A stretch of 64,000 bases of DNA from a virus (Duplodnaviria; Caudoviricetes): positions 64,001 through 128,000 of IMG/VR virus record IMGVR_UViG_3300033066_000802. One strand, written 5' to 3'. The notes beneath the pieces were generated by a model. That model searched no databases. It was not told the DNA's origin and was given only the letters and a program-made list of their open reading frames with translations. Positions 54,786 through 59,138 of the stretch are shown piece by piece (within the stretch, counting starts at the first letter, position 1; each line of letters opens with the position of its first letter). The position numbers and the translations under genes are program-made.

Positions 54786-55289
54786 ATGGAAGCAGCTCAA
54801 TTTATTGATAGTTTAAGAGAAACAATTGAAATTATGGAACCAATCGAAGGTTTTGACGATTGTATTTCAGAAAAAACCTCTTATAGGTTTGGTGAATATT
54901 GGGTTTTAACATACGATTTTGATAAAATTAGAAAAAAATTAGGAAAGAATTTTACCGAAAACCAAACACTTAATTACATATATAAAAATTTTAATTATAA
55001 AAATAATTGTTTTGTAAAATTCTTTAATAAAATAACACCGAATAAATTATCCAAATTATATGGTAATGATATGTTATATGCTGATGGATTTAAAGATGCT
55101 TTAGTTGGTGTTAGATTTGGTTTTGATGATAATAAAAATATTGCTGTATATGATTACGATTTATGTGTGTCGACTATGATGGAACAGAGTGAAGAAATGG
55201 ACGAAATGGATGCTATTGAATATATGGAGTATAATACAGTAGGTGCTTACGTGGGAGAATATACCCCATGTTTTTTAATGACATTGTAA
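54786..55289 (+). CDS. Phage hypothetical protein with an internally duplicated domain
   Basis: ATG 54786 preferred over the track's TTG at 54777, which lies in the -10/-7 box. Repeats: EGFDDCI...YDFDKI and DGFKDALVG...VYDYDLC...EYMEYNTVGAYVGEYTP. Confidence 0.65.
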   Translation: MEAAQFIDSLRETIEIMEPIEGFDDCISEKTSYRFGEYWVLTYDFDKIRKKLGKNFTENQTLNYIYKNFNYKNNCFVKFFNKITPNKLSKLYGNDMLYADGFKDALVGVRFGFDDNKNIAVYDYDLCVSTMMEQSEEMDEMDAIEYMEYNTVGAYVGEYTPCFLMTL

Positions 55290-58058
55290 ATGGCTAATAA
55301 AATACCAGTTGAAATAAGGGCTAAAGAAATACTATTAAATTATAATGGAACAAACGATTACCTTCTCGAATTAAAGTCGACTTTAATAAACAAAAAGACT
55401 TTACCATTTACTCCAAATCTATGTACCTATATCATTAATAATCACAAAGTTAAGCCAGTAATAATTAATAACAAATTTTTATTACATAAGAGTTTAAGAA
55501 AATATTTACAATTACACTATAAATTACAATTTGAACCAGAATTTATCTACGTCAATAAACTATTGACAAGGAAAAAAGATAATTTACATATTTGGGGATG
55601 TTTTTCAGATGATTGTAAGTATTATTTTTCAATCTTCATTGATAAGAATGCAATGAAGAAGACTAAGAATGTTGAATTACCATCTTTTGATGATTATAAA
55701 AGACCGCCACTACCACACCAATTACCAGCTATAAAAACATTATTAGAAAATGATAAATTTATTCTGGCTGATGATATGGGTTTAGCGAAAACAAGTTCAG
55801 CTATTGTTGCTGCAATTCTTGGAAACTACCAAAGAATTCTTGTTGTATGTCCAGCCACACTTAAACTAAACTGGAAAAAAGAAATATCCATATATGATGA
55901 CCCAAGTAACATATCTGTTATTGAGGGTTCGGATTTTACATTCAAAAAATGGACAATCATAAATTACGATATACTTAAAAACTTCCACTTTTTAAAGGAA
56001 AAGGGTGAGGATGAGGTTAAACCGTCAATAATAGATTTTTATAAATATGACCTTATCATTGCTGATGAGTGTTTTCCATATAAAACTTTAGTGGATACCG
56101 ATAAAGGTAAATTAGAAATTGGTAATATAGTTGAAAACTGTTTAGATGTTAAAATATTATCATATAATTTAAAAAATTCTAAATTAGAATACAAACGAAT
56201 TAATAGATGGATTAAAAAAGAAAGTAACACTATATTAAAAATATCACTTCAAAACGAAAAATTTATAGAGTGTACACCTAATCATAAAATATATGTTAAA
56301 GATAGGGGTTATATTAGAGCAGATAAAATATTAAAAAATGATGAATTATATACATTGCAAAAACCCAGTGACAAAAAATTGTCAATTCTGTGGAAAACAG
56401 ATGATTCTAACAGGGAAACGGAAGAAAAATCGATTCTGCGATACTGTTTGTTCAGCAAAATGGAAAATGAACCAACCAGAGATAAAAAAGAAAATTCACA
56501 ATCCAGAAGTTTACAAAAAAGCAAAAATATCAAATATAGAAAATTACAAGAAAAATCCACAACGTGCAAAAGATTCATCAGATCGTATGAAAAAAAACAA
56601 CCCAATGATGAATATAGAAACGTTGGAGAAAATGAAAAATTCATTGAAAGGGAAAACCTTTTTATCAAGAGGTGGGAACGGAAAAACAACAATACAAGAA
56701 CAAAAAATGAAAAATATTTTGGGTGTTGGCTGGGAACTACATTACGCAATAAAAACATCGATGGTAAAAACAATGTTCAAATCCTTACCGCCAGCATATC
56801 AAGTAGATTTAGGAAACGAAGATTTAAAAATCGCAATAGAGGTGGACGGAAAAACACATCTAACAAAAAAATGGAAATTTCTGGACAAAAGAAAAACGGA
56901 AGTATTAGAAGCGTTAGGGTGGAAAATATTGAGATTTTGGAATCAGGATGTGGACGATCAAATAGAAAATTGTTTGACGAAGATAAACGAGTTTATAACA
57001 TCGAAGTAGCCGATAACCATAATTATTTTGCTGATAATATATTAGTTAGTAATTGTCATTATTTGAAAAACGCTTCAGCTAATCGTACCAAATTATTCAA
57101 CGACTTTGCTTTAAAAATCAATACCAGGTGGCTTTTAACAGGTACACCTATTACAAGTAAACCAATTAATTTATATAATCTTTTATTATTATGTGATTCA
57201 CCTTTGGCTAATAATTGGGTTAGTTATGTTAGAAGGTACTGCGCTGGTAAACAATTCAATAGAAAGGGTACCACCCAAAAATATTGGGTAACTGATGGAG
57301 CAACAAATTTGGAAGAACTAAATGATTATATTAGTGATATATTATTACGTAGGTTAAAAAAAGATTCTGTTGAGTTACCACAAAAAACGGTTAAACCAAT
57401 CTTCTTACCGTTATCCTCATCAAAAAGGTATAATGAATACATGATTGAATACCAGGAATGGTATAATGATATGGTTGAAAATGGTCTTGAGCCAAAACCA
57501 ACGGAACATCTGACCCAACTGATTAAAATCAGACAATTATTATCTGAGGATAAAATGAGTAATACAATTAAGATTGCAGAAGATCTCATTGAAGAAGGTC
57601 ATAAGGTAATCATATTTTCTTGTTTCACCAACACCATACGTGGTATTCATGAGCATTTTGGTAAAGAATCCGTATTGATTGATGGTGCTATAAACTCTAA
57701 AAATAGAGATATTGCTGTGGAAAAGTTCCAGAATGATAAGAAAGTCAAAGTATTTTGTGGTAATCTTATTGCCGCTGGCGCTGGCATTACTTTAACCGAA
57801 GGTACAATTGTAATATTTAATGACCTTGATTGGTTACCAGGAAACCATGCCCAGGCGAGTGATCGAGCCTATAGAATAGGTCAAACAAAAGATGTACATA
57901 TTATATATATGTTGATTGATGACACATTGGATAATATGATGTATACAAGACTTCAAGAGAAAATAAAGGAAATCAATACTGTTATGGGTGATGAACATAC
58001 GGAAGATGTATCACTACTTAATGCTGTGGTTAGTAATTTATTAGTGGAAAGTAAGTAG
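55290..58058 (+). CDS. SNF2-family (SMARCAL1/HARP-like) helicase precursor containing an intein
   Basis: LADDMGLAKT, LVVCPA, IIADE|CH (split by intein), LLTGTP, LRRLK, KVIIFS, GAGITLT, QASDRAYRIGQ. Confidence 0.92.
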   Translation: MANKIPVEIRAKEILLNYNGTNDYLLELKSTLINKKTLPFTPNLCTYIINNHKVKPVIINNKFLLHKSLRKYLQLHYKLQFEPEFIYVNKLLTRKKDNLHIWGCFSDDCKYYFSIFIDKNAMKKTKNVELPSFDDYKRPPLPHQLPAIKTLLENDKFILADDMGLAKTSSAIVAAILGNYQRILVVCPATLKLNWKKEISIYDDPSNISVIEGSDFTFKKWTIINYDILKNFHFLKEKGEDEVKPSIIDFYKYDLIIADECFPYKTLVDTDKGKLEIGNIVENCLDVKILSYNLKNSKLEYKRINRWIKKESNTILKISLQNEKFIECTPNHKIYVKDRGYIRADKILKNDELYTLQKPSDKKLSILWKTDDSNRETEEKSILRYCLFSKMENEPTRDKKENSQSRSLQKSKNIKYRKLQEKSTTCKRFIRSYEKKQPNDEYRNVGENEKFIERENLFIKRWERKNNNTRTKNEKYFGCWLGTTLRNKNIDGKNNVQILTASISSRFRKRRFKNRNRGGRKNTSNKKMEISGQKKNGSIRSVRVENIEILESGCGRSNRKLFDEDKRVYNIEVADNHNYFADNILVSNCHYLKNASANRTKLFNDFALKINTRWLLTGTPITSKPINLYNLLLLCDSPLANNWVSYVRRYCAGKQFNRKGTTQKYWVTDGATNLEELNDYISDILLRRLKKDSVELPQKTVKPIFLPLSSSKRYNEYMIEYQEWYNDMVENGLEPKPTEHLTQLIKIRQLLSEDKMSNTIKIAEDLIEEGHKVIIFSCFTNTIRGIHEHFGKESVLIDGAINSKNRDIAVEKFQNDKKVKVFCGNLIAAGAGITLTEGTIVIFNDLDWLPGNHAQASDRAYRIGQTKDVHIIYMLIDDTLDNMMYTRLQEKIKEINTVMGDEHTEDVSLLNAVVSNLLVESK
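56070..57053 (+). mobile_element. Intein (328 aa) inserted in helicase motif II between DE and CH
   Basis: Block A CFPYKTLV, block B ECTPNHKIY, block F VYNIEVADNHNYF, block G ILVSN followed by +1 Cys; removal restores DECHYLKN. Confidence 0.93.
56338..57009 (+). CDS. Vsr/DUF559-type homing endonuclease nested out of frame (+1) inside the intein
   Basis: 223 aa: CQFCGK...RFCDTVC Zn motif, RMKKNNPM NUMOD-like segment, TIQEQK...YQVDLG...IAIEVDGKTH...DKRK...LGWKILRFWN. Confidence 0.88.
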   Translation: MMNYIHCKNPVTKNCQFCGKQMILTGKRKKNRFCDTVCSAKWKMNQPEIKKKIHNPEVYKKAKISNIENYKKNPQRAKDSSDRMKKNNPMMNIETLEKMKNSLKGKTFLSRGGNGKTTIQEQKMKNILGVGWELHYAIKTSMVKTMFKSLPPAYQVDLGNEDLKIAIEVDGKTHLTKKWKFLDKRKTEVLEALGWKILRFWNQDVDDQIENCLTKINEFITSK

Positions 58059-59138
58059 AACTGATCTAACATCTGGACGCATTGCAGCATCATCACCATC
58101 ATCTGGTGTAACAATTACACTATAGATTTTGTCTTTACCTACAGGTGTTTGCATCATTTCATCATACGTTAATACGGTGTTCAGGTCTAACTTAAATTTT
58201 TCAGCTACCCGTTTCTTTAATGTTGCGAGATCCACAATTTTATTCAGATTTAGATCCGAAAATAACTCTTTTGGTATTACATCAGACGTACTCTGGGTGG
58301 TAAAATCGACTTTATCAGTTTGTTTTTTGTTAGCGCCGTTAGAAAACCTGGCTAATTTAAATTCTGGGTCTGCGGCAACATCGGCAACCTTAGTATACAT
58401 GTAGTCACCAATATTATATCCCTCAGCTGTTAATATACTTATTACATTTTTTGCTATTTGTACATATTTTTTGGTGAAAAAATCACCAGAATCATTCCAT
58501 CTGATGATTACCTTATGTCTAAAACCACTATATGCTTGGTGTTCCCTACATTTAATTCTCAACTCTTTACACATTTGTTCCTGATATTTTTCAGGGAAAT
58601 TAAGTAAGTAGTTTAATCTCCTGGTCATACTATCATATGATCCTGGGTAGTGTATATACTCACCTTTCAAGGCATAACAAAAATTAGCGCAAGCACCCGC
58701 ACCTGGACATGTATTTATATAATAAAATTTCTCCTTATTAAGGTCGTAAGCGATACCTCTAAAAGCTGGGATACCAGTTTTGTAAACAAATTCGTTAGCA
58801 CCACCAGTTTTTAGTATTTTATCGTTTGTATTAACGGTATTTTTAGGCGGTGCTGTGATTCTTTTTATAAATTCTTGAACATCAACAAATTCTTTTTCTT
58901 TAATGAAGAAGGATGATTTTGCATGTATATATGGTTGTGATTTTGGAAATTTATCTCTTTCACCGTAGTTTTTAAAAGCATTTGCTCTGACTGAGTTTAA
59001 ATATTCAACAACGTCTTTAGGGTTTGGACACGTTTTTTGAACATCACTAAAGTCACCTTCCCAATCAATTTCATTTAATTCGGTACCTGAATGTGTCCTA
59101 ATTTTGTTTAATGATTCTATTAACGTGACTTTTTTCAT
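58041..59138 (-). CDS. Gp88-like phage protein (Cys-cluster, radical-SAM-related)
   Basis: TCPGAGACANFCYALKG and IRWNDSGDFF motifs; convergent 18-bp overlap with the helicase gene. Confidence 0.7.
   Translation of the reverse strand: MKKVTLIESLNKIRTHSGTELNEIDWEGDFSDVQKTCPNPKDVVEYLNSVRANAFKNYGERDKFPKSQPYIHAKSSFFIKEKEFVDVQEFIKRITAPPKNTVNTNDKILKTGGANEFVYKTGIPAFRGIAYDLNKEKFYYINTCPGAGACANFCYALKGEYIHYPGSYDSMTRRLNYLLNFPEKYQEQMCKELRIKCREHQAYSGFRHKVIIRWNDSGDFFTKKYVQIAKNVISILTAEGYNIGDYMYTKVADVAADPEFKLARFSNGANKKQTDKVDFTTQSTSDVIPKELFSDLNLNKIVDLATLKKRVAEKFKLDLNTVLTYDEMMQTPVGKDKIYSVIVTPDDGDDAAMRPDVRSVLLTFH

Follow-up and report, generated by a model that had tools for sequence, protein, structure and literature searches.

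Can an intein remain a single uninterrupted reading frame while the same DNA, read in the +1 frame, encodes a complete nuclease? This question is raised by a helicase gene in a 64,000-nt stretch of phage DNA (the window; positions 64,001 to 128,000 of the IMG/VR record IMGVR_UViG_3300033066_000802, Caudoviricetes), to whose plus strand all positions below refer unless a locus or strand is named. An initial annotation had claimed that the helicase frame stays open through a 328-amino acid (aa) intein with intact splicing blocks, that an open reading frame (ORF) in the +1 frame, at 56338-57009, encodes a zinc-finger plus Vsr/DUF559 nuclease with its own ATG and TAG, and that two stop-free frames in this DNA are too improbable by chance, so that both must be under selection. 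These three claims withstood the analyses described here, and we consider it very probable that the locus is a composite selfish element: a contiguous intein in motif II of an SNF2-family helicase, with a separate zinc-finger DUF559/Vsr-like homing endonuclease gene overprinted in its +1 frame, and with splicing, internal initiation and homing as its putative activities.

Searches of both frames with hidden Markov models (HMMs) from Pfam placed Intein_splicing (PF14890) in the helicase frame and DUF559 (PF04480) in the +1 frame. The helicase frame (55290-58058) encodes 922 aa with 0 stops and also matches SNF2-rel_dom and Helicase_C; Intein_splicing covers aa 273-588, and the intein interrupts helicase motif II between DE and CH (DE|CH, the bar marking the junction). 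The match to PF14890 is well above threshold (E 5.8e-13 to 1.6e-11; 49.4 bits against a cut-off of 35.8 bits), and the parts needed for splicing are present: the N-terminal nucleophile (Cys1, at 56070, which follows DE in nearly all SNF2-type hosts), the TxxH of block B (T69 and H72, in CTPNHK), and the C-terminal Asn328 with the +1 Cys (...LVSN|C). Across 12 homologues there is no variation at C1, T69 or H72, in the DNHN of block F, at N328 or at the +1 Cys. In an AlphaFold2 (AF2) model, intein residues 1-99 and 276-328 are confidently folded (predicted local distance difference test score, pLDDT, about 77-91), except for a short low-confidence loop at 293-302, and Foldseek matched the model with a probability of 1.00 to mini and split inteins (DnaX, DnaE, DnaB, RecA, NrdJ-1 and gp41-1). 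We infer that this intein, with its Hint fold, is active in splicing, because its motifs are intact and because it interrupts an essential helicase motif.

The product of the +1 frame is predicted to be a well-folded Vsr-like/DUF559 nuclease. Its match to DUF559 is strong (E 2.1e-13; 50.5 bits against a 20.6-bit cut-off), the databases hold 235 homologues, and four of its core residues (E168, D170, H174, D183 and K186), namely the first four, arranged as E-x-D-G-x-x-H...D, are invariant in 51 sequences. The AF2 model reaches a pLDDT of 92.9, and its best match in the PDB, by Foldseek, is the catalytic domain of I-Bth0305I (3r3p; target-normalised TM-score, TMt, 0.70; E 2.5e-3), followed by the DUF559 protein 3hrl and by Vsr; by sequence profile, in contrast to structure, the nuclease is nearest to 3hrl (E 2.3e-12). 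Towards the N terminus, C15, C18, C34 and C38 form a CxxC...CxxxC pattern that matched zinc fingers of the MYM/FCS/YacG type in profile searches, and Pfam did not find NUMOD in the nuclease. The +1 frame contains 13 stops in the 430 nt upstream of this ORF and 0 within it, and the third sense frame (+2) has about 30 stops over the same stretch. The TAG of the nuclease (57007-57009) spans the V and A codons of ...NIEVADN..., that is, it lies inside the EVA of VYNIEVADN, as originally described.

The dual-coding stretch is strongly T-poor, with an AT skew of up to 0.47, and T-poverty by itself lowers the frequency of stops, so we used null models in which the nuclease protein is fixed. Helicase-frame stops over the nuclease ORF were counted in 20,000 trials per scheme. 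Resampling synonymous codons with the codon usage of the window gave a mean of 28.9 stops (minimum 15), permuting the gene's own synonymous codons gave 12.1 (minimum 3), and shuffling codon order gave 16.0 (minimum 6). The observed number is 0, which was reached in 0/20,000 trials under every scheme, against expectations of 12-29. The cause can be read from the codons themselves: a stop in the helicase frame requires a nuclease codon ending in T before a codon starting with AA, AG or GA, and T-ending codons occupy 0/50 such positions in the window, compared with 43/96 (45%) elsewhere. Pooling the relatives described below gave 0/702 against 627/1,441 (43.5%), and each of 13 IMG/VR loci has 0 helicase-frame stops where synonymous permutation predicts 10-16 (0/3,000 trials each). 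Together, these results indicate that the helicase frame is kept stop-free by selection, exerted through synonymous codon choice in the nuclease gene.

The substitutions that separate the relatives show which of the two proteins is constrained. They are most frequent at the third position of nuclease codons, equivalent to helicase position 1, both in single comparisons (30/23/60 by nuclease codon position between L004 and L006; loci are named by their L numbers) and in total (6050/5240/8165), and this peak shows that the nuclease is the protein under selection in the dual-coding middle. Likewise, mean amino acid identity over the dual-coding stretch is higher for the nuclease frame (0.51) than for the helicase frame (0.33), and in the pure intein segments the periodicity of substitutions returns to helicase position 3. 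Intein residues 100-275, which the nuclease gene overlaps, have a pLDDT of about 30 and 0 secondary structure. The helicase-frame middle is thus a non-conserved, disordered filler that is kept only stop-free, in agreement with its early description as off-frame text. The situation changes at the downstream end, where the nuclease gene runs into the C-terminal Hint half and shares its first 115 nt, which encode folded protein in both frames. The lowest nucleotide divergence (0.19/0.09/0.39) was found there, at nuclease residues 186-205, some 20 codons over the intein strand VRVENIEILE, as expected under double constraint. The resulting layout is given in Table 1.

Table 1. Parts of the helicase-intein-nuclease locus, in window coordinates.
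Feature	Position	Strand	Evidence
N-extein of SNF2-family helicase, 260 aa, ending ...YDLIIADE (first half of motif II, DExH)	55290..56069	+	ORF list; Pfam SNF2-rel_dom; junction sequences
Contiguous class-1-type intein, 328 aa: Cys1, block B, block F DNHNYF, C-terminal ...LVSN, then +1 Cys	56070..57053	+	Pfam PF14890; invariant residues in 12 homologues; Foldseek
N-terminal Hint half, intein residues 1-99, confidently folded	56070..56366	+	AF2 pLDDT 77-91 in 10-residue blocks
Relic of ancestral nuclease start: ATA (56311-13) where relatives have ATG (GGxT-ATG-TTA...), in-frame TAA (56332-34)	56311..56334	+	Upstream alignment; start candidates; nuclease alignment
Homing-endonuclease candidate, 223 aa: one FCS/MYM-type Zn finger, helical region, DUF559/Vsr-like core; ATGATG start, TAG stop	56338..57009	+	Pfam DUF559; homologues; AF2; PDB matches
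Helicase-frame "shadow" linker, intein residues 100-275, K/R/N/S/E-rich, stop-free	56367..56894	+	pLDDT about 30; low frame identity; deleted in L024
C-terminal Hint half, intein residues 276-328: strand VRVENIEILE, blocks F and G	56895..57053	+	pLDDT 85-88 over residues 281-290 and 311-328
C-extein of helicase, 334 aa + stop, starting CHYLKN (second half of motif II), with Helicase_C	57054..58058	+	ORF list; Pfam; junction sequences

A first scan of IMG/VR retrieved 13 loci with nucleases 40-52% identical; in all 13 the nuclease lies in +1 relative to a long, open host ORF, and according to Pfam and tblastn the host in most of them is again the SNF2 helicase, its DE|C site occupied by the intein. 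A profile-based scan then extended the set to at least 336 relatives, from which a census of 85 loci was built with the best 80 plus the earlier loci. In 84 of these 85, the nuclease is nested in the same register in an open host ORF of at least 400 codons, with nuclease identities of 32-54% across the same-register loci, and HMMs of the two Hint halves showed that intein termini flank most census loci, at DE|C-type sites. The host genes belong to at least five families; among them are genes for helicases (SNF2 and ResIII/DEAD), for fusions of helicase and methylase, for clamp loaders of the AAA+ type and for a large terminase. Free-standing relatives of the nuclease also exist (L021/L022 and L075). 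The initial annotation had taken the locus for an intermediate between contiguous inteins and fractured genes. Because the register is the same in 84/85 loci at such low identities and in so many host families, the overprinted intein-nuclease is instead a stable, old and widespread architecture and not a fleeting intermediate.

In L013, L029, L035, L044 and L050 the junctions read DExHx|C, and in L041, L046, L047 and L068 they read DEAH|C or |S, so that these composites lie 2-3 codons downstream of the DE|C site of the window; this suggests shifts of the insertion site within motif II. Four loci (L001:708-4673, L003:603-4709, L007:161-4189 and L010:603-3587) contain the same helicase with a second, upstream intein that carries an in-frame LAGLIDADG domain (PF14528, Hom_end_hint), and one gene can therefore host a canonical and an overprinted intein. 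We put forward tentatively, as a reading that falls a little short of being probable, that the zinc-finger plus DUF559 family is an ancient +1-overprinted intein lineage of single origin, locked in register by the overlap with the C-terminal strand, moving with its intein between the Walker-B/motif II "DE" sites of unrelated P-loop nucleoside triphosphatases (NTPases), and the stock of the Vsr-type fractured genes. If this were true, overprinting would be a main, and largely unannotated, route by which inteins carry endonucleases in environmental phages.

The distribution of the element is what would be expected for homing, judging from the alleles compared. The nearest helicase relatives have no intein: these are L014-L017, with C-exteins 47-73% identical to that of the window (62-73% in the closest), and about 100 top database matches of about 593 aa. 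Conversely, helicases only 27-49% identical carry inteins that are 47-64% identical in their N-part, with nucleases 45-52% identical; the exception is the differently sited L013, whose intein N-part shows 33% identity. The similarity of the element thus appears decoupled from that of its host, since distant helicases share similar inteins and nucleases and the closest helicases are intein-less, and its occurrence among close extein alleles appears sporadic. Alleles without the intein have DE|AH or DE|SH at this point (GCT, GCA or TCC), with a junction of the L015/L017 type reading ...GCTGATGAA|GCACACTAC...; the cleavage target first proposed, ...GATGAG|TGTCAT..., is hence not a natural empty site.

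Some members of the family have lost parts of the composite. In L024 (352-813) the intein is reduced to a mini-intein of 154 aa, and of the nuclease gene only the final 37 codons survive, those shared with the C-part of the intein, indicating that the linker is dispensable and that loss of the endonuclease gene occurs. The helicase N-extein of L024 extends for only about 43 aa on its contig, and this host gene may be truncated. In L010 (3570-3640) the frame is broken by the loss of about 52 nt from the 3' end of the nuclease, and L020 (204-1921), on a 2-kb contig, has a 1-nt shift near position 910 that yields an ORF fusing N-extein, N-intein and nuclease core (P0064) and a separate ORF for C-intein and C-extein. 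Both frame breaks may be real or may be errors, because they come from single low-coverage metagenome contigs. The layout of L020 resembles the fractured-gene state; P0064/L020 was considered as a split-intein candidate and rejected, as one 1-nt frame change on its short contig accounts for it. No true split (fractured) versions of the SNF2 intein were found among proteins of near length.

How the nested gene might be expressed can be approached through its start region. Only 1/32 window ORFs of at least 150 aa has a Shine-Dalgarno-like motif, the leaders being A-rich and G/C-poor, suggesting a host, for example one of the Bacteroidota, that initiates translation without such motifs. The context of the nuclease start (gataaaatattaaaaaATGATG) is A-rich and G/C-poor, like the phage's other leaders, and the region from -20 to +20 is predicted to be unstructured (minimum free energy of 0 kcal/mol over 40 nt), with no stable hairpin around the start in folding predictions. 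Since most genes of this phage have no Shine-Dalgarno motif and the nuclease start shares the A-rich, unstructured character, internal Shine-Dalgarno-independent initiation at ATG 56338 is plausible.

From these results the following cycle can be proposed. Translation of the helicase frame would give a precursor with a disordered, hydrophilic linker of 176 residues between its Hint halves (residues 1-99 and 276-328); this linker would have no sequence role of its own, and the intein would splice out together with it, restoring the helicase. The nuclease would be made separately, by internal initiation at ATG 56338 in its unstructured, A-rich context without a Shine-Dalgarno motif, and, as its family and distribution suggest, would cut intein-less helicase alleles, whose repair would copy the whole element in. 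Selection on the essential helicase keeps its frame stop-free, purely through the synonymous codons of the nuclease, by never allowing NNT before AA, AG or GA.

Several observations weigh against a composite homing element of this kind. The penultimate intein residue is Ser, not the usual His, in 12/12 aligned SNF2-type copies (L012 has HN); a penultimate His is common in inteins, although not strictly required. No canonical Shine-Dalgarno motif at proper spacing precedes the nuclease start, and the GGA of the relatives ends 1 nt before the ATG. Upstream of the nested gene no promoter was found; in the relatives, the 400 nt that precede the nuclease start contain no T4-late-promoter motif (TATAAATA), and its only copy in the window lies about 300 nt upstream of the start. 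The census favours the best matches and so takes in too few free-standing relatives, of which L021 and L075 are examples. The profile match of the nuclease to 3r3p/I-Bth0305I is weak (E 0.026). The latter enzyme, a group I intron-encoded nuclease of the EDxHD family (Taylor et al. 2011, PMC3239194; PDB 3r3p), has the Vsr-like fold predicted for our nuclease, whose conserved acidic and His residues may correspond to the EDxHD set, but it bears N-terminal NUMOD/helix-turn-helix motifs, unlike the FCS/MYM-type zinc finger(s) found here, and the sequence of our nuclease is closer to DUF559. Finally, the relatives have two zinc fingers and start at an ATG within GGxTATGTT, about ten codons past block B, whereas the window copy is without this ancestral start codon and the first zinc finger, with about 37 codons missing. 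Owing to these two losses, the nuclease of the window may be weakened.

Taken further, the same losses would make the nuclease of the window an inactive, decaying relic, in a layout otherwise as described, so that the locus would be a de facto mini-intein with a long linker that no longer homes. The change of the ancestral ATG to ATA, the in-frame TAA, the deletion of the first zinc finger in comparison with 12 relatives and the short intein (328 aa against 365-419 aa) all fit such decay, which the endonuclease-less L024 and the frameshifted L010 and L020 show to take place in the family. Nevertheless, the remaining 223 codons are intact and opened by a new ATGATG, the nuclease core is whole and retains every family-invariant residue, and the confidence of its model is that given above for a well-folded protein; moreover, the existence of database homologues of 216-235 aa suggests that shorter forms may be viable. 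We thus regard an inactive relic as unlikely in the window.

Two other explanations would dispense with overprinting altogether. Programmed ribosomal frameshifts, into the +1 frame near 56338 and back near 57000, would produce a conventional in-frame intein-endonuclease, and the overlap on the same strand makes this physically possible, although no direct evidence for it was found. Such shifts would not need an open helicase frame over 224 codons, yet this frame is stop-free in 13/13 loci against the 10-16 stops expected; besides, the window has a stop in the +1 frame two codons ahead of ATG 56338, in L001 and similar relatives the +1 frame is open for only four codons ahead of the start, and no frameshift-type RNA element was found with Rfam over 55200-58200, all of which renders this explanation highly improbable. 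That the two frames are a sequencing or assembly artefact, in which compensating indels at both ends displace an in-frame endonuclease, is effectively refuted: contigs from an independent run of a different study, a riverine metagenome, show 0 differences and 0 gaps over 56000-56717 and 56849-57001, covering both frame junctions, the same register is found in 84 other assemblies, and an artefact would leave the avoidance of helicase-frame stops unexplained. A group I or II intron carrying the endonuclease ORF was also considered and rejected, because the Rfam scan by E-value (55200-58200) yielded only a chance 16-nt match and no intron RNA structure or frameshift element. The composite intein with its overprinted endonuclease gene therefore remains the reading we favour.

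Megablast of the helicase gene against a GenBank phage collection gave 0 matches, and PHROGs had no family for the nuclease and little for neighbouring genes. A convergent ORF of 365 aa (58041-59138, minus strand; phrog_1392, function unknown) overlaps with its 3' end the region of the helicase stop (58041-58058) by 18 nt. On the minus strand there is also an open frame of 154 codons (56309-56773) across the dual-coding stretch, most simply explained by the T-poor sense strand, whose complement is A-poor and hence stop-poor. The record measures 154,611 bp with a CheckV completeness of 52%, so the phage may be a jumbo phage; no second intein or second copy of the nuclease was found in these 154.6 kb.

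The locus thus offers a statistically unambiguous pair of overlapping frames under different constraints, one selected for its protein and the other only for the absence of stops, and it shows how an unsplit intein can shelter a free-standing homing endonuclease gene. The composite occurs in at least five phage NTPase gene families and is missed by gene callers; consequently, phage annotations would under-count homing endonucleases and mislabel inteins as decaying or as mini-inteins. Its contiguous, mini and possibly frameshifted forms are natural material for the model of split-intein origin of Dassa et al. (2009), and inteins tolerant of long linkers and a compact, predicted Vsr-type nuclease are possible tools.

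The arrangement as such is not novel: Gosselin, Arsenault and Gogarten (bioRxiv 10.1101/2025.01.02.630785) described actinobacteriophage inteins with same-strand, out-of-frame EndoVII-like genes, antisense LAGLIDADG genes and antisense VSR-like genes. Those inteins resemble ours in the contiguous open intein frame, in the intact endonuclease ORF that occupies another frame between the splicing blocks, in the structureless in-frame middle and in the sporadic distribution, and the origin proposed for them is the invasion of an intein by a free-standing endonuclease gene. They differ in that here the VSR-like/DUF559 gene is on the sense strand, in +1, that the host is the SNF2 helicase of an AT-rich, Shine-Dalgarno-less uncultivated phage and not an actinophage, and that the 3' end of the nuclease overlaps the structured C-part of the intein. 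A 2026 preprint (bioRxiv 10.64898/2026.09.14.751524) reports a cyanobacterial dnaX intein that likewise has an out-of-frame homing endonuclease and a sporadic distribution, in a different host gene and lineage. Outside inteins, the ShiLan-type insertion in a phage methylase (Arsenault et al. 2025, PMC11855218) also hides an endonuclease gene, of the HNH type, in another frame while leaving the host frame open, but it has no splicing domains, unlike the intact Hint halves that flank the nuclease here.

The fractured genes of Dassa et al. (2009; PMC2677866) are split inteins with a free-standing Vsr-like or GIY-YIG gene between the halves, which overlaps the downstream half by 6-69 bp. With them, our element shares a Vsr-like endonuclease between Hint parts, the 3' overlap with the C-terminal intein part (115 nt here), a setting in phage replication and repair genes, and structural matches that include the split inteins NrdJ-1 and gp41-1. 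Unlike in fractured genes, the intein frame is unbroken here and in 84/85 relatives, without stop, restart or split halves, and frame breaks appear only in L010 and L020. In the published accounts that could be read, we found neither a sense-strand +1 VSR-like/DUF559 gene in a contiguous intein nor one register shared by host genes of at least five families. The general principle being already published, the value of this element lies in breadth and detail and not in discovery: the sense-strand +1 Vsr-like endonuclease gene, and its spread over so many host genes, are what is new here with respect to the known systems.

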